Shown piece by piece: positions 43 to 10,688 of a stretch of 10,730 nt of DNA. This DNA comes from a virus. The stretch lies in the UHGV virus genome UHGV-0119078; one strand, given 5' to 3'. Position 1 is the stretch's first letter, and each line of letters starts with the position of its first letter. A program made the translations under genes and the position numbers. The notes under the pieces were generated by a model. That model saw only the letters and a program-made list of their open reading frames with translations. It was not told the DNA's origin and searched no databases.

Positions 43-55
43 CAATGACCCTTGA
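43..55. repeat. Left copy of 13-bp perfect direct repeat CAATGACCCTTGA (candidate attL core)
   Basis: Identical 13-mer at 43..55 and 10676..10688; flanks differ immediately outside the repeat; right copy lies about 90 bp from the start of the large serine recombinase gene. Confidence 0.45.
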
Positions 56-110
56 ATGAAGTCTATTCGGTTTTCTAAGAGACCTGTTAATTACAGGACA
101 ATATCAGGTG

Positions 111-135
111 TAGTTGGGCTTGTTCCAACCCCTAT
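111..135. repeat. Left copy of 25-bp direct repeat TAGTTGGGCTTGT(T/A)CCAACCCCTAT
   Basis: 24/25 identity with 2914..2938; contains dyad GTTGG-N7-CCAAC. Confidence 0.6.
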
Positions 136-312
136 GACTATGCAATTTAACGGTATTTTTCCAAGTATCTAAGCAGTTTTACACAGATTCTATGCAGTAT
201 CGGTATAGTCCCTTTTTAGCATAACTTATTGAAATATATAAAGAATCTTTGAAGTCTCTTTTCAGGGTAAACTGTATCGTGTTAGTCGTCCCTCTCTCGA
301 CTCCTAGAAAAG

Positions 313-345
313 TGCTATATACAGGGCTATATAACGCTATCTATG
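313..345. promoter_or_regulatory. Three iterated GCTATATA/GCTATCTA motifs at about 10-12 bp spacing, downstream of the small recombinase gene
   Basis: GCTATATA at 314..321 and 326..333, GCTATCTA at 336..343; reverse complement of the TATAGC motifs found upstream of the recombinase gene (1097..1200). Confidence 0.3.
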
Positions 346-462
346 CAGTTGGTCACACAGAATAACTATCAAGCTGCTTAACAGTTTCTTACGTGAAAGT
401 TATTTCTGAGGGTGGGTAAGTGTTCAGGAGATTTTGCGTAGGACACGCTTAGAGAGTGGATA

Positions 463-488
463 CAAAAAAGCCCCCATGAAGGAGGCTA
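463..488 (-). terminator. Rho-independent terminator candidate for the small serine recombinase gene
   Basis: On the minus strand: stem AGCCUCC / GGGGGCU (7 bp, one G-U pair), loop UUCAU, followed by U6 (plus-strand A6 at 464..469). Confidence 0.45.
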
Positions 489-513
489 TGAAGATGCTAC
501 TAAGTTTTTTTTT

Positions 514-1089
514 TTACAGTGTCTTTGTCCAGTGACGGCTAACCGTTCTTACAGAGAGATTCAGAAGCTTTGCAACCTGACTTTGTGACAATCCCTTTGC
601 CTTATGCTCTAAAACGGCCTCTGTAGTGTTCACAGCTACAGGACGACCCAACACCTTACCTTGTGCTTTAACACGCTGTAGACCCTGCTTAGTACGCTCT
701 CTGATGCGGTTACGTTCGAACTCTGCAAAAGCCCCGAACATTTGAAGCATCATTCTACCTTCTGGCTTGGATAAGTCCTGTATGGGCAAGTCTAAGCAAA
801 TTAGCTTAATCCCTTTTGCAATGAGCATATCAACCGTTTTCTGTAGGTCGATACAATCACGTCCTAAACGGTCAAGCTTGAGAACCACCAGCGTATCACC
901 AGCCTCTAGTTTATGTGTGACCAAGTTAGAGAACTCTTTACGCTCCATAGCAGCCACTGAACCGGATACTACTTCTTCTATGATTCGTGTCTTAGGGATT
1001 GTGTAACCTGCATTCTTGATGGCTTCAATCTGGTTCTCATTGGTGGAGTCATCAACTGATACACGACAGTAAGCAAAGATGCGTGACAT
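514..1089 (-). CDS. Small serine recombinase, resolvase/invertase family (Hin/Gin/TnpR-like)
   Basis: 191-aa ORF; N-terminal catalytic block YCRVS, conserved GDTLVVLKLDRLGRD and ERTKQGLQRVKAQGKVLGRP blocks closely resembling Hin/Gin and Tn3-type resolvases; C-terminal HTH-like region; SD-like AAGGGA upstream of the ATG. Confidence 0.85.
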   Translation of the reverse strand: MSRIFAYCRVSVDDSTNENQIEAIKNAGYTIPKTRIIEEVVSGSVAAMERKEFSNLVTHKLEAGDTLVVLKLDRLGRDCIDLQKTVDMLIAKGIKLICLDLPIQDLSKPEGRMMLQMFGAFAEFERNRIRERTKQGLQRVKAQGKVLGRPVAVNTTEAVLEHKAKGLSQSQVAKLLNLSVRTVSRHWTKTL

Positions 1090-1096
1090 GTTCTAT

Positions 1097-1200
1097 CCCT
1101 TCTATATAGCCAACAAAGGCCTGTCTTGCTTGTCTATAGCCATTAAATCAATTATCACAATTGTTGTCTATAGCTACAGCTACCTTTTTATATAGACACT
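1097..1200. promoter_or_regulatory. Cluster of TGTCTATAGC-type motifs in both orientations immediately upstream of the small recombinase gene (candidate res-like/accessory binding region and promoter)
   Basis: TCTATATAGCC 1101..1111, TGTCTATAGCC 1131..1141, TGTCTATAGCT 1165..1175, inverted TATATAGACA 1190..1199; 1165..1199 forms an imperfect 35-bp palindrome (TGTCTATA ... TATAGACA). Confidence 0.4.
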
Positions 1201-1544
1201 TAACGGGCGTTTGTTGTCATGTGTATTTATACAGTTAAAGACCTCGATAGATGCCTTTATAGCAACTCACAGAGAAAGTCAATGATATTTGGCTTTTTTG
1301 CAAAGGGGGTCACATAGCTGGTGTGACGGGTACTTAGCAGACATACAGATATTTTCGAAGATTCGGGGAAGATGAGATTCAAAGAGGGCTAGTCATTTTT
1401 TATAAAAATTTTCAGAGACTGAAAAGTTACTGTACAGATTTTGCACAATCTTACCAAGCCTCATAGTTGATTCGATTAGAAGCTAATCTCATAGAAAGCT
1501 CTGTAGCGAGTTTTAACCCCATTTTTAGGGGTAACCTATAGGGA

Positions 1545-1641
1545 TGTACTAACCACCTTAAAATAAAGGGGTAAAATCGCTTAGAATGCGTTACAGAGCG
1601 TCTGAGAAGCCATATTCACAGATTTTACTAAAGTCTCAGAC
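1545..1641. repeat. Left arm of about 97-bp imperfect inverted repeat (pairs with 4417..4513)
   Basis: Ungapped alignment of 1545..1641 with the reverse complement of 4417..4513 gives about 69% identity, with core blocks 27/31 (1581..1611 vs 4447..4477) and 12/13 (1629..1641 vs 4417..4429); both arms begin with TGT at the outer end. Confidence 0.7.
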
Positions 1642-1661
1642 TTCTAAGTGGTCTTTTTAAC

Positions 1662-1710
1662 AGGAGGGGTTCCCCTATGGTCACATATCCCCTCTCTCTC
1701 CCGCTTAGTG
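1662..1710 (+). repeat. Copy 1 of a three-member motif family: G-rich hairpin followed by TCTCCCGCTTAGTG
   Basis: AGGAGGGGTTCCCCT hairpin then GGTCACAT then TCTCCCGCTTAGTG (1697..1710, identical 14-mer also at 2371..2384). Confidence 0.5.
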
Positions 1711-2114
1711 TCCCTTGATAGTATCTAGAGAGTATGCCTGTAAAACTTCTATATCAGGTCAGATTTAGAGGGTTTGATAGAATCTTCAAAGGTACTTGAC
1801 AGATAACTATGAAGTTGCCAGGAAGGAGTGTTTAACGGGAGGAAAGATACGATATAACCCGAAGGGGAGAGTATCATCTTAACAATTATCTTAAGAATAA
1901 AAACTGAAAAATTCTTAACAGAACTACCAAGAGGGAGCGATAAGACCAGAGGTAGTGACCTTGTTAAATAGGCCGTTTCAAAGCTCTTAAGAGTTTGTTA
2001 AGTAATGGCTATGTGAACAATCTTACCACTTTGTCAATGCTTTTGTCTTTGACCTAAATCAATAAAATGTATCGTTTGATGCACTTTTAAACAAAATAGC
2101 TAAAAAATCTTTTT

Positions 2115-2163
2115 AGAGGGGCGCTTCGCTTGGGGTCACTATGTTCTTTCTCTCCCGTTAAGA
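2115..2163 (+). repeat. Copy 2 (divergent) of the G-rich hairpin / TCTCTCCCG motif family
   Basis: AGAGGGGCGCTTCGCTTGGGGTCACT ... TTTCTCTCCCGTTAAG; shares GGGGTCAC and TCTCTCCCG with the copies at 1662 and 2338. Confidence 0.4.
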
Positions 2164-2337
2164 GGGAAGTTACAGGGACATTTCAAAGCCCTGATAAGGT
2201 AAGCCCGATGATAACAGAAACAGAGGGCAAAACCACTTATCAACACTGTGAACGAATAACGTAAAGGGCTGGTTAAGAAGGTCGGTTTAGGGATTGGTAG
2301 ATGATTCGGATGAAGCATCCTCATAACAATACCAATT

Positions 2338-2384
2338 AGAAGGGAGCTTCCCTTTCTTGGGTGTCGCTCTTCTCCCGCTTAGTG
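2338..2384 (+). repeat. Copy 3 of the G-rich hairpin / TCTCCCGCTTAGTG motif family
   Basis: AGAAGGGAGCTTCCCTTTC hairpin then TCTTCTCCCGCTTAGTG; 14-mer 2371..2384 identical to 1697..1710. Confidence 0.5.
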
Positions 2385-2413
2385 GATTGATTAAGAAGAC
2401 CTCTGAAGTTTCT

Positions 2414-2584
2414 CTGTGAAGGTGCTGGACAGCCTTATATATGGCTAATTACAACTTATTGAAAAATAAGAACTTTTAGAAGTTACTGTTAAGGTTACGG
2501 AGTTAACTGTGAAGAGACTTGTCAGTTCTCTATATATGGCTAATTACAACTTATTGAAAAATAAGAACTTTTAGAAGTTACTGT
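2414..2584 (+). repeat. Tandem direct repeat, two units (2414..2489 and 2507..2584) with a perfect 54-bp core (2436..2489 = 2531..2584)
   Basis: Core TATATATGGCTAATTACAACTTATTGAAAAATAAGAACTTTTAGAAGTTACTGT is identical in both units; each core holds a 6-bp stem with GAAA tetraloop (CTTATT-GAAA-AATAAG) and an adjacent 5-bp hairpin (AACTT-TTAG-AAGTT); units share CTGTGAAG upstream with a divergent linker. Confidence 0.75.
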
Positions 2585-2684
2585 CAGAGAGGTGAATACT
2601 TGATAGATACAGCTTTCCGGTTCTGTCAAGAGGTTTCACTACCCACCAGCTAAAAATATTTCAGAGGCGGGAGTGATGGGGGGG

Positions 2685-2861
2685 TTAGGACGGGTCTTTG
2701 TGGTCATTATCCTTAAGGTCAAGCGTCCATGTACGACCGAACAGTTTAAAGACAACAAGCACTCTGACGAGGACGTAGCGGAGTAACAGACCTGCAATCA
2801 GCCCGATACCTCCACCAGCCCATACATCAGGTGACCCCAGTTCAGGAGGGAGATTTACCAT
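2685..2861 (-). CDS. Candidate small membrane protein (58 aa from internal ATG with AGGAAA SD-like sequence; 70 aa if started at 2897)
   Basis: ORF encodes one strongly hydrophobic segment (WAGGGIGLIAGLLLRYVLVRVLVVFKLF) followed by a charged tail; locally GC-richer than surroundings. No recognisable family; could be spurious. Confidence 0.3.
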   Translation of the reverse strand: MVNLPPELGSPDVWAGGGIGLIAGLLLRYVLVRVLVVFKLFGRTWTLDLKDNDHKDPS

Positions 2862-2913
2862 TAAATTTCCTGTGTGCAATGCAATACCATGTGACATACA
2901 TAGTTGATTCGGT

Positions 2914-2938
2914 TAGTTGGGCTTGTACCAACCCCTAT
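2914..2938. repeat. Right copy of 25-bp direct repeat TAGTTGGGCTTGT(T/A)CCAACCCCTAT
   Basis: 24/25 identity with 111..135; lies just upstream (on the minus strand) of the small membrane ORF and about 90 bp upstream of the 3026 promoter. Confidence 0.6.
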
Positions 2939-3025
2939 CGAATAAACCTCATAGCCACGCCTTTATATTTTACTCTCCCCATAGAACCATTATACCACAG
3001 ATGTTAATAAAATGTTAAAAAATAC

Positions 3026-3054
3026 TTGACATTAGTCTTTGAAAATGCTAGTAT
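3026..3054 (+). promoter_or_regulatory. Sigma70/SigA-type promoter for the 3106..4417 operon
   Basis: Consensus -35 TTGACA (3026..3031), 17-bp spacer, extended -10 TGcTAGTAT (3046..3054), followed by ATTGTATATATA element shared with the 4553 promoter. Confidence 0.55.
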
Positions 3055-3105
3055 TGTATATATAAGTTAACAGAATAATAACATCTTATGAGGGTCGGAA
3101 CATGA

Positions 3106-3663
3106 ATGAGAGACGCAGAATTTAGAGCGATGCTTCAGGCATCGAGACAACGTAACAAGCACAACTCCTACGCTTACACAAACTCCCCCACCAGCCACGA
3201 ATTACCCAAGTTTACCAAGAAAGAACGCAAAGGCATTGACGAAGTAATTCGGGCAATTACACCGAGGAACCGTTACATGCCAACACGCAAAACAACAAAG
3301 AACAGCATCAAGAATTATCTGGCTAGCTTTGACAGCTACGCGCAACTACCGAGCAAGCTTGATGATATTTTTATTGGATTTTGCAGAAGCGAGGGTCACC
3401 AGAAATACAACCAGAAGGTTTTTTATTTACTGCGAAGTCTTGATGAAATTAACTCAGCCACCGTGACAAATCATCTTCAGCGTCAAGCAACCAGACTTAG
3501 CCATGAATTACCAAGCGATAAATATTGCGCTTTGCTTGCTGTAATGTGCGCAAAGTTAATTGGTGTTGTTGAGCATCATATTGCCGTTGGAAATATTGAG
3601 CCAATGGAAAACGAGCAACCAGATTTCGAGTTTGACCCGTATTTAGTTACAGAGGAATTTTAA
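3106..3663 (+). CDS. Hypothetical protein (185 aa), basic N-terminus, acidic C-terminal tail
   Basis: Intact ORF directly downstream of the predicted promoter; GAGGG SD-like sequence upstream; stop codon directly abuts the next ATG (TAAATG). No family recognised. Confidence 0.65.
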   Translation: MRDAEFRAMLQASRQRNKHNSYAYTNSPTSHELPKFTKKERKGIDEVIRAITPRNRYMPTRKTTKNSIKNYLASFDSYAQLPSKLDDIFIGFCRSEGHQKYNQKVFYLLRSLDEINSATVTNHLQRQATRLSHELPSDKYCALLAVMCAKLIGVVEHHIAVGNIEPMENEQPDFEFDPYLVTEEF

Positions 3664-3942
3664 ATGAAGAAACACACTTTGACCCGTATTTCAGAGGAAG
3701 CTTTTAACGAGCTTACCAGAATTAAACGAGCTACTAACTTGCCTCATCAAACTGTAATGCAGCTTGCAATTGCTAAAGAGGTCACTGAGTCGGATTTACT
3801 TAAATATCCAGTCTCTAAAGGTCGTAAGCACATCCGAATTACTCAGGACGCTTTAGATACTTTGAAGGCACTTAACGGCTTTAAGATTGATATTGCCCGA
3901 CTATTGAGCATCAAAATTAACAAGCTATCTCAAGAGGTCTGA
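3664..3942 (+). CDS. Hypothetical small protein (92 aa)
   Basis: ORF tightly packed between the upstream and downstream genes (2-nt gap to next ATG), consistent with an operon. No family recognised. Confidence 0.6.
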   Translation: MKKHTLTRISEEAFNELTRIKRATNLPHQTVMQLAIAKEVTESDLLKYPVSKGRKHIRITQDALDTLKALNGFKIDIARLLSIKINKLSQEV

Positions 3943-3944
3943 CT

Positions 3945-4217
3945 ATGAAGCAATGGCGAGATGATATTAAACGGTTCTTTGCAACTTACTTCATGATTAA
4001 TTACGAAACAGGAATGCTTGAATGGATTGATGGTGGAGAGGTTAAGACAAGAGATGACGCTTACGGTAATCCAATGATTCGTTATGGCACTCGTGATTAT
4101 TATGTGAAATATGTCATCTGGTTTTTGCATCATGAAGTTCAGGCAACTAAAAAAATTATCTTCAGGGATGGTAATAAAAGAAATTGCCACCCAAACAATT
4201 TACTACTGGAGATTTAA
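3945..4217 (+). CDS. HNH-like small protein (HNH_3-type fold), probably degenerate at the catalytic histidine
   Basis: 90-aa ORF with NYETGMLEW (matches the Y-x-ETG-x-x-x-W N-terminal signature of phage HNH_3 proteins) and a C-terminal IIFRDGNKRNCHPNNLLL block aligning with the IDHxDGN...N..NL HNH core, but with Phe/Arg where the catalytic His is expected. Confidence 0.5.
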   Translation: MKQWRDDIKRFFATYFMINYETGMLEWIDGGEVKTRDDAYGNPMIRYGTRDYYVKYVIWFLHHEVQATKKIIFRDGNKRNCHPNNLLLEI

Positions 4218-4417
4218 TGCTATGTATTAAATTCGAATATTTGACAGATAAAATGATTAAGCATGTATCAGACCTGCTCATCAAAGAAGGTGGTTTCGGT
4301 GATGCTTGCAATCCAAAAGATATCTTCATTCATGCCACCAGCCCAAACGCAACACTAAAGACAGCAGTTACAGCGGAATGGTTTGAACGAAATAAAGCGG
4401 AATTAGGTTATTGGTAG
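4217..4417 (+). CDS. Hypothetical small protein (66 aa), translationally coupled to the HNH-like gene
   Basis: ATG at 4217 overlaps the upstream TAA stop (TAATG); GGAG 5 nt upstream. The longer ORF-track start at 4184 lacks an RBS. No family recognised. Confidence 0.45.
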   Translation: MLCIKFEYLTDKMIKHVSDLLIKEGGFGDACNPKDIFIHATSPNATLKTAVTAEWFERNKAELGYW

Positions 4418-4513
4418 TCCGAGACTTTAAGAGAAATTAGAAAAACAGCTTCTCAGACGCTCTCAATCGCATTCTAACGCAAAAAACTACCTTATTTTAG
4501 GGTGGGTAACACA
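4417..4513. repeat. Right arm of about 97-bp imperfect inverted repeat (pairs with 1545..1641)
   Basis: See left arm; this arm starts at the stop codon of the 4217..4417 ORF and ends about 40 bp before the 4553 promoter. Confidence 0.7.
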
Positions 4514-4552
4514 GTAAATAAGAATTGATGTTACCAATCTGTTAAAAAGCTG

Positions 4553-4581
4553 TTGACAAATAACCTTAAGCATGACATAAT
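4553..4581 (+). promoter_or_regulatory. Sigma70/SigA-type promoter for the 4923..9034 gene set
   Basis: Consensus -35 TTGACA (4553..4558), 17-bp spacer, extended -10 TGaCATAAT (4573..4581), followed by ATTGTATATATA (4580..4591), identical to the element at 3053..3064. Confidence 0.5.
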
Positions 4582-4848
4582 TGTATATATAGGGAGAGCA
4601 ATTCTCCTTGAATTAAACTATTAATCGTTCTACATCAATGATAGTTGTTTTGAGTTGGAAAGGTGCAATGCTTTTCGTCATGGCCTATTTAGCCCACACT
4701 AGATAGGCTATCTCAAAAAGTACTCTTGTTCATTCGTTTGAATCCCTTAGATGTTTTAATTTCTTCACCTTATGAATGGCCCTTTATAAGAAATTATCTA
4801 GGGCTATTCAGTTTTTAAAAAGCATACTTGGCAAACCGCCTTTTAAGT

Positions 4849-4913
4849 CTCTTCTAAGTTTGTAGGCTGTCAGGTGTGCTTTTTAAAAACTGAAATACTT
4901 TAGCTTAGAAGAG
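4849..4913 (+). promoter_or_regulatory. 5-prime-UTR hairpin predicted to sequester the ribosome-binding site of the 4923 gene
   Basis: Perfect 10-bp inverted repeat CTCTTCTAAG (4849..4858) / CTTAGAAGAG (4904..4913) with a 45-nt loop; the 3-prime arm overlaps the SD (GAAGAGG) 10 nt upstream of the ATG; the UTR from the predicted promoter is about 330 nt. Confidence 0.35.
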
Positions 4914-4922
4914 GAAAAAACA

Positions 4923-5633
4923 ATGACAAACGATATTTACATTAACGGTAAAAAGATTGATAGCTTCGGTGACTGGTCGCCACAGACTGAACATCCAGCT
5001 ATCACTATTCAGCGTAAAGAACACGATGAAAGAATTAAGCTTGAGCAATCGTTAAAGATGTCACCAAAGGTAATTTCCTTTGTGTCTCCTGAGCCTCAAG
5101 AAATGCCAGATATCTGCAAAAGTGAAGCACTATTTAATCTTGAGCGTGAATACTACCCACAGTTAAAAGAACAGCGTATTCGACTTGATGACGCTTACAG
5201 CAAAGTTACCCTGATGCAATCAGCTATTGAGCCATCAGAATTTGAGATTCAGGATGAATTGTCACAGAAACCATTTGTCTATTACCAATATGAAGACAAT
5301 GATGGTTTTGGTACTTTTCCTGAGAATATCCCAGACGTGATTAATAATCTTTCTGACGGATATCGAATTGTGAAGATGATTGGAGCTTCAAGAGGTGCTG
5401 GTCAGTTTATTTACATGACCAATAAGAGCGATGAAGAACTCCGTGAAATTGCCAGACAGAACATCTTAGCATCACGTAACAAGCAACTTGAAAATGTTAA
5501 GTTGTGTCTCTTAAGAGAGCTTCAGGCTATGAAAGACCTTATTTCTGCATATGAAACGCAGAAGAAGGTTGCTATGCAGGCTGATATTGAGCAGTTAGTG
5601 AAGATTTCTCAGAAATACGCAAAGGCACTTTGA
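4923..5633 (+). CDS. Hypothetical protein (236 aa) with predicted C-terminal coiled coil
   Basis: Intact ORF with AGAGGAA SD-like sequence; no family recognised by inspection. Confidence 0.65.
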   Translation: MTNDIYINGKKIDSFGDWSPQTEHPAITIQRKEHDERIKLEQSLKMSPKVISFVSPEPQEMPDICKSEALFNLEREYYPQLKEQRIRLDDAYSKVTLMQSAIEPSEFEIQDELSQKPFVYYQYEDNDGFGTFPENIPDVINNLSDGYRIVKMIGASRGAGQFIYMTNKSDEELREIARQNILASRNKQLENVKLCLLRELQAMKDLISAYETQKKVAMQADIEQLVKISQKYAKAL

Positions 5634-5658
5634 CTATGAATTAAAAAGGAGGTGATGA

Positions 5659-5862
5659 ATGTTTGATTTAACGGAACGCTATGAACTTATTAAAGCAATT
5701 AGCGAGAGATTGAAAGAACAACCCAACAAACCAAAACGAATCAAATCATCCACCTCTAGGCAAAATAGCAGAATCAGAAGAATCGCTAAATGGTGTCTTG
5801 ATAAATTACCAAGTGATTGTCAGATTGTCGGTGAAGATGGTAATTATTATCTGATTAGATAA
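5659..5862 (+). CDS. Hypothetical small basic protein (67 aa)
   Basis: Strong SD AAAGGAGGTG 7 nt upstream of the ATG; lysine/arginine-rich central segment (KPKRIKSSTSRQNSRIRRIAKW), suggesting nucleic-acid binding. Confidence 0.55.
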   Translation: MFDLTERYELIKAISERLKEQPNKPKRIKSSTSRQNSRIRRIAKWCLDKLPSDCQIVGEDGNYYLIR

Positions 5863-5909
5863 AGAATTGGTTGGGTGTATGAGATAGGTTCTATCGAATC
5901 TATAACACG

Positions 5910-5951
5910 GGGAGAGATTATCGATATTATTCGGTAGTTTCTCCCTTTTTT
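5910..5951 (+). terminator. Possible intrinsic terminator/attenuator between the 67-aa gene and the tape-measure-like gene
   Basis: GGGAGA (5910..5915) pairs with TCTCCC (5940..5945) around a 24-nt loop containing the palindrome TATCGATA, followed by T6 (5946..5951). The long loop makes this weaker than a canonical terminator. Confidence 0.3.
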
Positions 5952-5980
5952 GTATATGAAACTTAAGAGGTGAAATATGA

Positions 5981-8107
5981 ATGAGCAAATTCACAGTTGA
6001 TAGTTTTATCGTTGAGTTAGGCTTCAGCGAGAACGTTATTAAGGGCTTGCAAAGAGTTGAAAAAGCAGCTTTGCAGTCAGCACAAAGAATTGAAAAGAAC
6101 CTAAATAAAGGCTTCAAGATTAATACAAAGCAACTTGACAGTAATCTGACAAGTTCTTTGAAGTCAATGGAAGGGAAAATTAATAAGACCTTTGACCGTC
6201 TGGAAGCTAGAGCAAGAAATACTAGAGTTTTCCGTTTCACAAGTCAGGTTAATGACGTTATTAATCCGCCAAAACAACCGAGGCCAAGAAGAGTTACTAG
6301 TGACCGAGCTATTACAGCGGCTTATTCAGCGAATATGACTAAGCTGAAAGGTCTTAACCCAATTGTCGAGAAATACATTAAGAGTCAGTTTTACGCATTA
6401 AGTAGTAAAGCTGGTCAGATGGATAACACCAAGTTTAATGAAGCCCTTGCTAAACTAAATTCAAGTGTACGAGAAGCAATTGCTAAAGCCAGAGGTCATA
6501 CATCCACCAGCATTAACGGTGACAGAGCAGCTAATAGTCTTGATAGTTTGAGTTCAGCAGCAGTTAAAACAGCAGGTGCATTTATCAGCTTTCAGGCTGT
6601 ACTATCCGCTTATCAGAAGATTATGGAAGTTGGCCTTCAACGTGCATCATCGGAAAGAAGTATTGATTTCGTATTCGGTGACCAAAGTACACAGGTCAAA
6701 AAGTTCATTCAAGATTTAACTCAAATTACTGGTATGGACACAACCGAAACACAAGCACAGTTTGCTTCATTTGGTGCATCTGCAAAAAATACGATGGGTC
6801 TTGAAGGCTCAGAGGAATTATTTAAAAACTTAACTGGATATGCCCGTTTAATGGGTCGTTCAGATGAGCAGATTCAAAGAGCATTAACCGCAGTATCGCA
6901 GATGGCTTCTAAGGGTCAGGTGATGGCTGAAGAGCTTAAGGGGCAACTATCTGAAGCTTTACCGGGTGCTACTCAGGCATTTGCAAAGGCTTTAGGTCTG
7001 ACTGAAAAACAGCTTTTCGATAAGATGAAAAATGGTGATGTTAAAGCCTCTGATGCACTCCCTAAGTTTGCTAAAGAACTTGGTTCACAGATTAATTCCA
7101 GAGGTGGCTGGAAAGCTATTCAGGACTCTACGCAGACGATGTTAGGGAACTTAAAGAATACTTGGAACAACTCACTAACGGATATCTTCAGAGGTTCTGA
7201 AAATGGTCTTCAAGATTTCACAAGAAGCTTAACCAATCTTTTAAATAGTCTTGGTGGGAGTGGTAAAACATTAGGTGAAAGTCTTGGTAATCTCATGACT
7301 TCTATGTCACACGGTGTCGATAACCTGACTGATATTAGTTACAGGGTAAGGGCGTTCTTTGACGAGGTGACATTGGCTTATCGTTCACTAAATGACACTC
7401 AGAAAAAAATTGTTGATGGCCTATCTGATGGGTTAATTGATGGTTTGAAGATGCTTGCTGTAGCTGTTACTGCTCAAAAGGCTGCAAATGTAGCTGGAGG
7501 CTTGTTAAACCTTGCAAATGCTGTTACTTCATTCGGTGACGCTGTTAATAAAGCTAAAGCTGGCAAGGCTGGTTCTTCAGGTGGTGCGCTAAATAAAGTT
7601 GGTAGAGTTGTTCTTTATGCTGAGTTGGTGAACTTTGCTCTTGATAATTTAAACCCTGAAGCGGCTAAGAATCCGAACTTACACCAATCAGGTATTGGAA
7701 CAGAGACAAACTTCAACCCTGAATACAAAGGCGATTCATCTAAACCAAACCAAATTAATGATGGATGGGCTAAGATTGGTGGTTCTATCGCTGACTGGTT
7801 TAATGGTGCAGCTAATAAAATTGCTAACTTCCAAGAACCGATGAATAACTTCGTAAATAACACACAATCAACTCCACCAGCTATCGACACGGTTAATAGC
7901 AATGCTCAATTAGCTATGGCTGTATCAGAGTTAGGAAGAAAGGTAGACGCTTTAACAGCAGAAACTAAGAAGCCCTTGTCACTTAATATCAAAGGTGAAG
8001 CAATTGTTAGGCCGGATGAACCATCTTTCTTTATTTTCAATCAATCGGCTAATGACCAGTTCACGCAGGATATGCTCTTAAGTTCAAGCTATCCAGAAGA
8101 AGAATGA
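5981..8107 (+). CDS. Tape-measure-protein-like protein (708 aa)
   Basis: Central block GQVMAEELKGQLSEALPGATQAFAKALGLTEKQLFDKMKNGDVKASDALPKFAKELG resembles the conserved core of phage tail tape measure proteins (recalled from memory, not searched); alpha-helical, Ala/Gly/Ser/Asn-rich, low-complexity C-terminal part; AAGAGGTGA SD. Coding confidence is high; the functional call is moderate. Confidence 0.55.
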   Translation: MSKFTVDSFIVELGFSENVIKGLQRVEKAALQSAQRIEKNLNKGFKINTKQLDSNLTSSLKSMEGKINKTFDRLEARARNTRVFRFTSQVNDVINPPKQPRPRRVTSDRAITAAYSANMTKLKGLNPIVEKYIKSQFYALSSKAGQMDNTKFNEALAKLNSSVREAIAKARGHTSTSINGDRAANSLDSLSSAAVKTAGAFISFQAVLSAYQKIMEVGLQRASSERSIDFVFGDQSTQVKKFIQDLTQITGMDTTETQAQFASFGASAKNTMGLEGSEELFKNLTGYARLMGRSDEQIQRALTAVSQMASKGQVMAEELKGQLSEALPGATQAFAKALGLTEKQLFDKMKNGDVKASDALPKFAKELGSQINSRGGWKAIQDSTQTMLGNLKNTWNNSLTDIFRGSENGLQDFTRSLTNLLNSLGGSGKTLGESLGNLMTSMSHGVDNLTDISYRVRAFFDEVTLAYRSLNDTQKKIVDGLSDGLIDGLKMLAVAVTAQKAANVAGGLLNLANAVTSFGDAVNKAKAGKAGSSGGALNKVGRVVLYAELVNFALDNLNPEAAKNPNLHQSGIGTETNFNPEYKGDSSKPNQINDGWAKIGGSIADWFNGAANKIANFQEPMNNFVNNTQSTPPAIDTVNSNAQLAMAVSELGRKVDALTAETKKPLSLNIKGEAIVRPDEPSFFIFNQSANDQFTQDMLLSSSYPEEE

Positions 8108-8263
8108 TTTAACGGTGTTCTACGTGAATAAAGCAAAGTTAATACCCGCACTGAAAAATAATTTTTACGTAGCTCACGCTTAACAGAGAAAATACTTATA
8201 TATCAAAGGCTTGGTTAAAAATGATTAAAATACACTAAGCCTTTGAAATCAAAGGAGAATTTA

Positions 8264-9034
8264 ATGATTTTTAGCAATCAAATCCGCTACAGTGGCAAAG
8301 ATGGCGTTTACTTCCACTTAAGAGATAATGTAGATGCCTTCTTAACCTTATCAGCAACTGAACAGATGGAATATGACAGCCCTATGATGGTGACAACTCA
8401 GGCTATGCAATCGGGGCAAACTATAACTGATAATGTTCAGAGAGCACCTAAGACCATCTCTATTAGCGGTGTTGTAGTGGTTGATTCGACGGGTTCAGTT
8501 CTATTAACCAGACAGGGGCAACTTGTAGAAACCTTTATTTCTACGGTTGAACAATGGCGAGACCAGAAGCAAATCATCACTATTGTTTGTAAAGATGGAA
8601 TATCTATCACTGATAGTATCATTACTCAGTTTAAAGCGAGTAAAGAGCATACCATTGCTAATGGTCTTCGTATTCAGATGACCTTCCAAGGTGTAGAATT
8701 TCGTTCAATCGTAGGTCAAACTGATATTTCAGCAGCAACTGGAAAGACCGCTACCACGAATGATGGCGGTTCTACCAGTAAAAAGAACACTGGCAACACT
8801 ACAACGAGTCTTGGAAGCCCTATGCTGACCTGTAAAGAGCTTTTTAGCTATTCGGCAAGTGAGTTATCAGATGAAGCGCTAAAAGCCCGTGTAACGTGCT
8901 CTAAGAGCGTTAGCGTTAAAAATGGTGAGAGCACCTTCACAGCCTCAGCTAATGAGCAAGCTTCAAAGGTGCTTAAGTCGGGTAATGCTTTACGGAAGTT
9001 TTCTGTAAATCCGAACAAGAAGGGCACTTATTGA
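8264..9034 (+). CDS. Hypothetical protein (257 aa from ATG 8264), possibly tail-associated given its position after the tape-measure-like gene
   Basis: AAAGGAG SD 6 nt upstream of ATG 8264 (the ORF-track TTG start at 8243 has no RBS); Ser/Thr/Gly-rich central linker. No family recognised. Confidence 0.55.
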
Positions 9035-9038
9035 GACA

Positions 9039-9061
9039 TAAAAAGGGGCTTCATAGCCCCT
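9039..9061. terminator. Intrinsic terminator between convergent genes (strong for the minus-strand integrase gene)
   Basis: Perfect 7-bp stem AGGGGCT / AGCCCCT with loop TCAT (9044..9061); plus-strand A5 (9039..9043) gives a U-tract on the minus strand immediately after the integrase stop codon. Confidence 0.6.
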
Positions 9062-9066
9062 GAAAA

Positions 9067-10587
9067 TTACAGTTGATAAGCGTCTATTTCTAGTAGCTCT
9101 TTTTCAGCAATTTCAAATATTGATGTTCCATCATTTAGCGGTAACGGGTTTGTAGGTATGGTGATTTCAGTGTCGTTCTGTAGCGTTACAATTACCGAAT
9201 CCTTACCCAATGTAAGCCCTTTTAGATGTTTGGACAAAATCAACTGACACTCGACACGACCCGCTTTAGTTGTCAGGTCAATATCTTTAAGCTGGGGTAG
9301 TTCCTTATCAGTGAGTGAAGCCTTACGCCTCATGTTATCAATCGTGGTCTGTAGCTCTGTACGCCTCTGGTTCAGTTCCTTAATCTGAATTTTTAGTTCA
9401 TCAATATCATCCATCTCAAGAAGTAGGGCGGTAGCTTTCTTGATTCTGGTTGTGACAATTTCAACCTCATGCTGTAGAGATGCAATCTTCCCCTCTGCTT
9501 CTCCATCATTCCCCACGTCAATCATTCCTAGAAAATTTTCAAGCATCCACTTATCAAACGGTTTACGCTTCAACGGAGGAACATCACAGCGACCATCAAG
9601 ATGGTTATTGCACCGATAAACGCCCTGATACTTATTCTTAGTCCCTGTAGGGTGAACACTAGCCCCGCACTGACACCTAAACAGACCTTTGAAGATGTTA
9701 ATCGTTAATGGATTATCACTTGCAGGTGTACGGCCTATACGGTTCTTACCAAGAATCTCTTGAGCTTTATTGAACGTTGAAGCATCTATAGCGGCTTCGT
9801 AGTAGTTCGGTATAGCGGGGCGGTCATTACGTTGTGATGCTGGTAACGTGCCTATCGTTGTCTCTGACCTTAAGATGGTGCGTACAGAGTGAACACTAAA
9901 CCCGTTAGCATCTTTACGGCGACTAAACGACTTTATACCGTTGCTTTGAAGGTGACGGGCGATGTTATGCAGACTTTCACCACTTAGCAGCAGCTTGAAA
10001 ATCAGTCTTACAGTCTCAGCGTGTTCATTGAGTTTAAAAGTATCGGGGTCAATCCATCCGGGAACCATCTTTGTTAAACGTTGTTCACCAGCAAGGGCAA
10101 GTTTTGCACGTTGCTCCCATTTCTGAGAAACACGGAAAGACTTCTGCTTAGATTCCTGATGCGCTATGTAGGCTTTGACACGCTGGATGATTGAGATTCC
10201 TAAATCATCGGCTAAAGCATCCTTTGTGTAGATAAGACCATCTTGTAGCGTGTGAATCTCTAACCCGTTGCCTAAGATGCGATTCATCAAGGCTTCTGTT
10301 TCAAGGTGTTCTAAGCGGCCTATACGGTCGATACTCTCAACAAGCAAAATCGTACCTTCTGGAAACTCCCCAGACTCAATACGGGCTAACATGTCACCAA
10401 ACTGACCAGTAAGATGCTTACCTTTGTAACCGGATAGACCTTCATCACTGAAAGACGCTACTACTTGAGCATCGCTATTCTTCTTCAGCCACTGCTTGAA
10501 CAGGTCGTTTTGTCGTCTGGTTGAATCTGCACCTTCAGCGCCTTGTATGGCTGATGAGAATCTCAAGTATGTTATTACGGTTCTCAC
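9067..10587 (-). CDS. Large serine recombinase (phage-type serine integrase)
   Basis: 506-aa ORF; N-terminal resolvase-type catalytic domain (YLRFSSAIQ, LLVESIDRIGR), extended recombinase domain, Cys-rich zinc-ribbon-like motif (CQCGASVHP ... YRCNNHLDGRCD) and C-terminal coiled coil (KIQIKELNQRRTELQTTIDNMRRK); start codon appears to be GTG (plus-strand CAC at 10585..10587) with GGAG upstream. Confidence 0.85.
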   Translation of the reverse strand: MRTVITYLRFSSAIQGAEGADSTRRQNDLFKQWLKKNSDAQVVASFSDEGLSGYKGKHLTGQFGDMLARIESGEFPEGTILLVESIDRIGRLEHLETEALMNRILGNGLEIHTLQDGLIYTKDALADDLGISIIQRVKAYIAHQESKQKSFRVSQKWEQRAKLALAGEQRLTKMVPGWIDPDTFKLNEHAETVRLIFKLLLSGESLHNIARHLQSNGIKSFSRRKDANGFSVHSVRTILRSETTIGTLPASQRNDRPAIPNYYEAAIDASTFNKAQEILGKNRIGRTPASDNPLTINIFKGLFRCQCGASVHPTGTKNKYQGVYRCNNHLDGRCDVPPLKRKPFDKWMLENFLGMIDVGNDGEAEGKIASLQHEVEIVTTRIKKATALLLEMDDIDELKIQIKELNQRRTELQTTIDNMRRKASLTDKELPQLKDIDLTTKAGRVECQLILSKHLKGLTLGKDSVIVTLQNDTEITIPTNPLPLNDGTSIFEIAEKELLEIDAYQL

Positions 10588-10675
10588 GGTGATAAACTCC
10601 CATGCAATTGATTATCATTTAAAGATGAACTTATAAACGTTATGGCTAATGCTACAATGCCGAATAGCTACAATA

Positions 10676-10688
10676 CAATGACCCTTGA
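10676..10688. repeat. Right copy of 13-bp perfect direct repeat CAATGACCCTTGA (candidate attR core)
   Basis: Identical to 43..55; lies about 90 bp outside the integrase start. Confidence 0.45.

Follow-up and report, generated by a model that had tools for sequence, protein, structure and literature searches.

Mobile elements are known to carry tandem cis-regulatory repeats. The late promoters of phage P2 and satellite P4 carry a dyad, TGT-N12-ACA, that is bound by Ogr and delta, and the crr region of satellite P4 contains two direct repeats of about 120 bp. Here, we report on a duplicated non-coding sequence in UHGV virus genome UHGV-0119078, a stretch of 10,730 nucleotides (referred to as the window) that holds a 10.6-kb element (43-10688) integrated in the first codons of tonB, between yciI and tonB. 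The duplicate had been pointed out in an initial annotation made from the sequence alone, and it matches no described family of such repeats. Our tentative reading is that it constitutes a duplicated cis-acting cassette, operator- or promoter-like and built of protein-binding motifs (a dyad designated O, a TA box and an A box), which probably belongs to a set of such sites across the non-coding DNA of the element and controls transcription.

The likeness to the operator sharing of P2 and P4 lies in a short dyad found at several non-coding places of a satellite-like element, in half-sites that are kept around a free centre, and in the enrichment of a related class of boxes in a phage of the putative helper type. 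In contrast to the P2/P4 dyad, the element motif is CTGTGAAG-N3-CTTGTCAG, spanning 19 bp, and no zinc-finger activator of the Ogr/delta type was found; the putative helper is a virulent Felixounavirus and not a temperate P2-like phage, and binding of a protein to the element motif is putative. As in P4 crr and in iteron arrays, two direct repeats of about 100 bp with short repeated boxes and a variable copy number are present in a satellite-like element, but the sequences are unrelated and no alpha-type primase-helicase or Rep gene is recognisable in the element. Unlike iterons of 17-22 bp, the boxes of the element are 8-bp words of a palindromic class, and neither an adjacent AT-rich unwinding element nor a DnaA box was identified.

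At 100% identity, a repeat search of the window returned a single family, whose two copies of 54 nt (2436-2489 and 2531-2584) start 95 bp apart. A perfect 54-mer repeat in 10.7 kb is not explicable by chance. The two 54-bp cores without mismatches, about 95 bp apart, were thus confirmed as first described, and so was the divergence of the segments upstream of them (2414-2435 and 2507-2530), which are alike only in part. The TATATAT run that had been placed before the core is instead the start of the 54-mer and lies inside the identical sequence. From an alignment of 22 loci the true unit is about 95 bp long, begins with CTGTGAAG...CAG, runs through (TA)n and ends in ..TTACTGT. Tandem Repeats Finder reported nothing at the repeat region, since likeness over the full 95-bp period extends to less than two units. 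Within the unit the (TA)n box starts 5 bp past the O dyad and resembles a -10 element, and the last bases of the first core together with the linker at 2490-2506 form an CTGTTAAG box (2486-2493). Three copies of another motif (GGGG.TTCCC or GGGAGCTTCCC ... TCTCTCCCGYTTAG) are found in the neighbouring arm that is free of open reading frames (ORFs), at 1662-1710, 2113-2168 and 2336-2388, the last of which directly precedes the tandem units in all relatives.

The O dyad is not confined to the repeat. The pattern CTKnnAAG-N3-CTTnnMAG, with at most one mismatch, had nine matches in the window (at 247, 366, 1419, 1784, 2414, 2507, 3701, 3860 and 4840) where 0.20 were expected, a number that none of 200 shuffles reached, and seven of the nine lie outside ORFs. 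Exact matches occur at the corresponding non-coding places of relatives. Among 35 distinct variants the positions CTGTGA.G, CT and C.G were invariant, including the whole left half CTGTGAAG, while N3 took nine values, and the dyad of the unit displayed a symmetric change from G-C to A-T (GCTG..CAGC and ACTG..CAGT). Invariant half-sites with a free centre are the pattern expected of a dimer operator, and the O site may hence be called operator-like. One of the dyads sits in the loop of a 27-bp inverted repeat (4807-4894, 89% complementary) in the leader of the tape-measure operon (4923-8107). The same inverted repeat gave the sole Rfam hit, to a microRNA model far below threshold, which is meaningless.

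The A box, ACTTATTGARA, occurs at 224, 2454, 2549 and 9026, on the + strand in all cases, and with one mismatch allowed there were 6 matches against 0.97 expected. A module of A box, TATATA and O is located about 170 bp inside the left end in every relative, at three integration sites, and its dyad and TA part are inverted relative to the array. Motifs whose order and orientation can be rearranged while their sequence is kept would be expected of separable protein-binding sites, and the inversion of the O/TA part at the left end argues for such sites in the DNA. Repeated protein-binding sites, one of the functions first suggested for the duplicate, thus appear to fit better, given conserved primary-sequence motifs that recur in the element. 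An iteron array of the usual kind, with several direct copies of a 17-22-bp site beside a cognate rep gene, was not found, there being only one to three units of 95 bp and no Rep, primase or helicase recognisable in the element by Pfam, PHROGs or NCBIfam. Inspection of the sequence gave no convincing fit to sites for CRP, LexA, IHF, DnaA or sigma-54.

Of 5,426 complete E. coli genomes, 418 (about 8%) contained the region 2330-2630. In an evenly spaced sample of 60 of these 418 records, two units were found in 47, one in 11 and a truncated array in 2; among 86 complete arrays, which include metagenome contigs, 33 had one unit, 52 had two and one had three. Unit spacing was 94-97 bp across arrays, and the proximal unit was kept in every complete array, those with one unit included. 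Mean pairwise identity among loci was 94% for the proximal core, 93% for the tail that follows it (2585-2629) and 90% for distal cores. Third codon positions in the small gene next to the repeat were 83% identical. These differences point to purifying selection on the units, stronger on the proximal one. Motif positions were invariant and neighbouring positions of the unit variable. The initial annotation had named absence or free variation of the unit in homologous elements as the mark of a neutral recent duplication; comparison of copy number and sequence in relatives revealed neither, the unit being conserved in one to three copies.

The identity of the two cores in the window is exceptional, since in most relatives the distal core departs from the proximal one at 1-11 of the 54 positions. 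Diagnostic states are GGGTGAT, CTCATT and AAGCAT in the distal copy and GGCTAAT, CTTATT and AAGAAC in the proximal copy. The distal core of the window bears all the proximal states, its upstream dyad stays of the distal type, and the array of one relative (L003) is a mosaic of both. Judged from these core differences and diagnostic states, the duplication is evidently old and common to most relatives, and the zero-mismatch state of the window is a gene-conversion tract of about 50 bp in which the distal core was overwritten by the proximal one. The proposal of a very recent duplication or of selection on the core specifically has therefore to be amended.

The O dyad, we infer, is bound by a dimeric DNA-binding regulator that either the element itself or an infecting phage of the Felixounavirus type encodes, and the O sites of the left-end module, of position 1784 and of the tape-measure operon leader would be further targets of the same regulator. 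Two in-phase units 95 bp apart (about nine helical turns) could permit cooperative binding at a regulated promoter or operator, and one unit would be enough for function because many relatives carry only the proximal unit. Several observations weigh against this interpretation. The O pattern was defined from four of its nine matches, leaving five that are new, and the half-site box is short and degenerate, and enrichment of stop-rich words is expected in any non-coding DNA. On the + strand the (TA)n box has no suitably spaced sigma-70 -35 element before it. The sole candidate binder, a protein of 92 aa, gave only sub-threshold hits to ribbon-helix-helix-like families (DndE, VapB-like), and its structure prediction was unusable (pLDDT 42). 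Also, a weak helix, TAATT/ARTYA, is kept through G.U pairs on the + strand, and some RNA role is possible.

Tandem small RNAs, a riboregulator or an aptamer had been suggested on the grounds of two hairpins, CTTATT-GAAA-AATAAG and AACTT-TTAG-AAGTT. Both occur in each copy, but as RNA they are weak and no better than shuffles. For the + and - strands of the unit, folding energies were -5.2 kcal/mol (z = -0.73) and -2.6 kcal/mol (z = +0.39), respectively, sliding windows over 2386-2615 ranged from z -0.9 to +1.3, and consensus folds were no better than column shuffles on either strand. In 35 distinct unit copies the two hairpins and the upstream palindrome had 84.2% of cells paired as compared with 83.8% after shuffling (135/500), and no pair in either hairpin was changed on both sides. 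Pair 53-64 was broken in 15 of these copies and pair 67-80 in 21; the left arm CTTATT was altered to CTCATT, CTCGTT, CCCATT or CTAATT while AATAAG remained unchanged, and the commonest proximal state, AACTT..AAATT, has a C.A mismatch. RNAalifold returned essentially no consensus structure (-0.19 kcal/mol), and Rfam had no match in 2414-2700 of the window at E <= 1 or in 1300-4000 of the relative L007 at E <= 5. With stems unconserved and no compensation, an RNA acting by way of these two hairpins was not upheld. The 5-bp TAATT/ARTYA helix, on the other hand, had 98.9% of cells paired by A-U, G.U or G-C, a level reached by only 1-2 of 500 shuffles; a larger data set contained A.C combinations in it, and linkage by gene conversion can mimic covariation there. 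Across 68 distinct sequences the 9-bp stem of the tail persisted; it includes a U.G pair when read on the + strand and a C.A mismatch when read on the - strand. An RNA function of the unit is thus possible but not favoured. A candidate ORF of 13-17 codons, preceded by the Shine-Dalgarno-like GAGAGGTGA in the tail, was rejected, its start being lost in L021 and its frame in L010.

The half-sites of O belong to an 8-bp class, CTKnnMAG, that is densest within the window at 2376-2625 (6 per 250 nt, mean 1.2). Compared with dinucleotide shuffles, 5 were found in the repeat against 0.48 (0/500), 9 in the rest of the ORF-free arm against 1.8 (1/500) and 31 in a 1.65-kb non-coding region of Felixounavirus garuso against 2.7 (0/500), this being the densest window of the phage. 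A 49-kb piece of E. coli chromosome had 0.74 per kb, as opposed to about 4 to 5 per kb in phage and element. The garuso region (L030 4950-6600; phage 48.95-50.6 kb) is the single large non-coding region of the phage, situated where two transcription units converge, and is packed with CTTGTTA(G/A), CTGTTAAG and CTGTAAAG, including 11 copies of CTGTDAAG that share a strand and a 700-bp stretch. Neither the record nor the Felix O1 genome paper states what this region does, and the regulation of transcription in Felix O1 is not known (PMC3185647). The shared class of boxes, short as the box is, would tie the repeat to the putative helper type. No BLAST match to phages and no extended similarity was found for 2330-2700; the A, TA and core motifs of the unit were not found in garuso, which shares at most one 12-mer, and the top words and 7-mers of the phage (CTTGTTA, TGTTAAG) were not enriched in the element. 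The two non-coding regions have 155 8-mers in common against 65 +/- 16, mostly stop-rich words of little weight. It appears unlikely that the units and the ORF-free arm serve as the cis handle by which undescribed satellites of E. coli, Shigella and Salmonella respond to or interfere with Felixounavirus and that they are bound by a phage protein; in that case the units could act as an origin triggered by the helper, as a transactivated promoter or as a sponge titrating a phage factor.

Transcription through the units has been considered in both directions. Each unit contains a promoter-like CTGACA or TTAACA-18-TATTTT on the - strand (2587->2558 and 2492->2463; 9/12 matches), called again in L007, and tandem leftward sigma-70 promoters, one per unit, might start a non-coding transcript into the conserved ORF-free arm. 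The two hexamers fall on invariant or nearly invariant columns and are placed immediately past the point where the small - strand gene is terminated, but 5 promoter-like sites in the region are not above the 5.7 expected by chance, the conserved "spacer" TTTTAGAA and the block downstream are unexplained by a promoter alone, no conserved ORF or terminator follows on the - strand, and the left-end copy lacks such an architecture; tandem leftward promoters are rather improbable as an explanation. The opposite course, a small RNA or riboregulator on the + strand that starts after the (TA)n box near GGCTAATT, ends at the hairpin behind the tail and acts in cis or in trans, is given little credence as well. 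It would account for the pairing of the TAATT/ARTYA helix and for the tail stem, which pairs better on the + strand. In most relatives a hairpin with TTTT behind it is found about 95 nt downstream on that strand, and the HP segment of the unit is 14/16 complementary to 4845-4860 in an mRNA leader. That hairpin is, however, scored as a - strand terminator and is gone from the window, no + strand sigma-70 promoter or -35 element was found for the units, and duplexes of unit RNA with the small-ORF mRNA or with operon leaders were no better than shuffles, in a test that is crude on long sequences; the unconserved hairpins, shuffle-level folds, A.C combinations and lack of an Rfam match stand against it too. 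A GAAA-loop hairpin can be drawn as in the GNRA hairpins of boxB-type nut sites, and the repeat adjoins a convergent small membrane-protein gene with a hairpin between them, as do antisense RNAs of type I toxin-antitoxin systems (par of pAD1). Unlike boxB or par RNAs, the stems are not kept, no boxA adjoins, and mRNA complementarity is at chance level.

The clustered boxes may alternatively be iteron-like targets of a replication or packaging protein from a helper of the Felixounavirus type, in a helper-dependent origin or packaging signal by which the infected cell would copy or package the element. CTKnnMAG and CTGTDAAG cluster in the phage where transcription units converge, the element carries Felixounavirus-like tape-measure and Dit genes, no replication gene is recognisable in it, a relative is known as a circular 11.2-kb contig, and P4 crr is a precedent. 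Yet similarity to any phage does not extend beyond what is noted above, the top words of the phage are not enriched, the O sites are spread over 5 kb rather than concentrated and accompanied by only one or two units, and the function of the phage region is itself not known, so that an origin or packaging signal is doubtful. Far less credit is due to a crossover or accessory site of a small serine recombinase (hix-, gix- or res-like). The element does encode a DNA-invertase homologue, 1.4 kb away, and the core includes an AT-rich 26-bp imperfect dyad with a central AA, as in the hix, gix and cix sites of Hin, Gin and Cin; TTATTGAAAAAT-AA-GAACTTTTAGAA resembles hixL at 18/26 positions. In a naturally occurring deletion (L011) the A box of a unit is fused to the A-like box at 9026, a junction equally explained by 9-bp microhomology. 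Unlike hix, gix and cix, the copies are direct and not inverted, no inverted partner site exists in the window, and the units are kept without any small recombinase in L004, L007, L009, L021, L022 and L025, as well as beside an unrelated recombinase allele in opposite orientation; lacking co-occurrence with a recombinase and a partner site, this function was rejected. L011 (NZ_CP159630.1) is a deletion derivative: at a shared ACTTATTGA its left arm runs directly into the end of the Dit gene, and the proximal unit is lost together with every gene as far as the integrase. That the duplicate is functionless and kept alike by gene conversion is just as remote. One-unit arrays persisting in many lineages within a range of 1-3 units, the conversion mosaics (L003) and the lesser conservation of the distal copy are what a neutral duplication would produce, but neutrality is at odds with the excess identity of proximal unit and tail over third codon positions next door, with invariant motif positions amid variable neighbours, with recurrence of the same motifs at other conserved non-coding places, and with a majority state of two units at fixed spacing. 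A duplicated cassette of protein-binding motifs is consequently preferred. Positions of the features are collected in Table 1.

Table 1. Features of the repeat and of the surrounding element, in window coordinates
Feature	Position	Strand	Remarks
Attachment core, left copy	43..55	+	13 bp, CAATGACCCTTGA, tonB start; from empty sites in other E. coli records
Diverged third copy, left end	224..265		A box 224-234, TATATA 235-240, O dyad 247-265
Small serine recombinase, DNA-invertase family	514..1089	-	Variable cargo; Pfam Resolvase; PHROG 125 DNA invertase, E = 1.8e-56
O dyad, non-coding arm	1784..1802		CTTCAAAG-GTA-CTTGACAG; exact match, also at corresponding place in relatives
O dyad (19 bp), distal unit	2414..2432		CTGTGAAG-GTG-CTGGACAG; fits CTKnnAAG-N3-CTTnnMAG with 1 mismatch
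54-nt core, distal unit	2436..2489		(TA)n box, GGCTAATTACA, A box ACTTATTGAAA, AATAAG, TTTTAGAA, ACTGT
Inter-unit linker	2490..2506		TAAGGTTACGGAGTTAA; read from sequence
O dyad (19 bp), proximal unit	2507..2525		CTGTGAAG-AGA-CTTGTCAG; exact pattern match, kept at homologous place in relatives
54-nt core, proximal unit	2531..2584		Never missing; in every relative, one-unit arrays included
Conserved 45-nt tail	2585..2629		Inverted repeat CTTGATAGA (2599-2607)/TCTGTCAAG (2621-2629); 93% mean identity
Small membrane-protein gene	2685..2861	-	58 aa, convergent on repeat; annotated in identical record
Divergent sigma-70-like promoters	2989..3054	both	- strand TTAACA-18-TATAAT with TG; + strand TTGACA-17-TAGTAT; conserved in relatives
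O dyad in loop of 27-bp inverted repeat 4807-4894	4840..4858		CTTTTAAG-TCT-CTTCTAAG; leader of 4923-8107 operon
A-box-like sequence overlapping Dit stop codon	9026..9036	+	ACTTATTGAGA; deletion junction in L011; may be chance match
Large serine recombinase (integrase)	9067..10587	-	Pfam Resolvase, Recombinase, Zn_ribbon_recom
Attachment core, right copy	10676..10688	+	CAATGACCCTTGA; restores tonB start codon

The ends of the window match a 97-bp stretch that is uninterrupted at the tonB start in other E. coli (empty sites), and a 13-bp core stands at both ends; the window is therefore an integrated element. Besides its two serine recombinases the element encodes an HNH protein and several proteins without family assignment. 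Its only phage structural genes are the tape-measure and Dit-like baseplate genes, about 76% identical at the DNA level to those of Felixounavirus phages, and it has no capsid or terminase genes. No conserved ORF was found in 1090-2685, no ORF of 1280-2440 being kept across relatives, and a tRNA scan gave no tRNA. Relatives are integrated at three or more chromosomal sites (yciI/tonB, ymdF, yecN) and occur in E. albertii, Salmonella and gut metagenomes; the homologues listed are all at least 82% identical, and the Salmonella copies are nearly the same. An 11,233-nt metagenome contig (L053, ERZ506742.633) has a 55-nt terminal overlap and its Dit/integrase side joined to the left end, by which it is evidently a circular form, and an excised or episomal state of a relative thus exists. 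The integrase region of this contig has no DNA similarity to that of the window. With its own integrase, a partial structural module only, helper-related genes and a circular form, the element has the layout of a phage satellite, its dependence on a helper being putative. Literature searches found no description of the element or of the repeat sequence, and the family seems undescribed.

The left arm (400-1283 and 1725-2400) is a cargo slot across relatives, with a Dam methyltransferase, an AP2/HNH protein, other hypothetical genes or a different small recombinase in opposite orientation as alternatives, and for many relatives similarity to the window starts just left of the repeat, at 2338-2414. 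Four TGTCTATAG/TCTATATAG-like words lie at 1100-1200, immediately upstream of the start of the invertase gene. The sole record identical to the window, NZ_AP027844.1 (L001), has an IS5 inside the tape-measure gene that the window lacks. A 40-bp composite, CATAGTTGATTCGGTTAGTTGGGCTTGTACCAACCCCTAT, at 2899-2938 has partial direct copies at 111-135 (25 nt, 96%, corresponding to 2914-2938) and at 1462-1479 (18 nt, corresponding to 2899-2916); in relatives it is present, shortened or absent at the 2899-2938 place, like a small insertion or recombination scar. Inverted similarity of about 70%, with a core of GACGCTCTCAATCGCATTCT, links 1498-1643 in the ORF-free arm to 4416-4508 in the region after the 4217-4417 ORF, and relatives have a further copy of this segment between the small - strand gene and its promoter, which is not in the window. 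At 10641-10655, 25 bp inside the right end, TATGGCTAAT(GC)TACAA has 10 + 5 nt in common with the beginning of the unit core, TATGGCTAATTACAA; chance alone would give about one 10-mer match of this kind, and the TACAAT hexamers of this stretch could drive the re-formed tonB gene.

On the right of the repeat, the small membrane-protein gene (codon-position conservation 90%, 98% and 83% at positions 1, 2 and 3) is served by the leftward promoter of the divergent pair, both of which are strong. In relatives it ends at a hairpin that is scored as a - strand terminator; about 60 bp are replaced in the window and the hairpin is gone. The same terminator hairpin (CCCCTATAC..GTACAGGGG) is present as an exact reverse complement with unchanged flanks in L004, L021 and L024, at the place homologous to about 2640-2680 of the window. 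TGTATATATA directly follows each of the two + strand sigma-70-like promoters, TTGACA-17-TAGTAT and TTGACA-17-CATAAT (3049-3066 and 4576-4593), and may represent an operator or start-site element that is common to both and akin to the (TA)n box of the units.

The repeat as such is moderately interesting, and the element with its possible motif link to Felix O1-like phages offers the more interesting leads. Should the units be only a local duplication of an operator or promoter, they would represent ordinary regulation of a mobile element. If the sites are shared with Felix O1-like phages, the units would mark a control point of a common and seemingly undescribed mobile element, which about 8% of complete E. 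coli genomes contain, which Shigella and Salmonella share and which carries the tape-measure and baseplate-hub genes of a virulent phage. To our knowledge, satellites of strictly lytic enterobacterial myoviruses have hardly been described. Felix O1-type phages are used for typing and biocontrol, and a resident element that sensed or blocked them, for the study of which the 19-bp dyad and the A box are defined probes, would be of practical interest.

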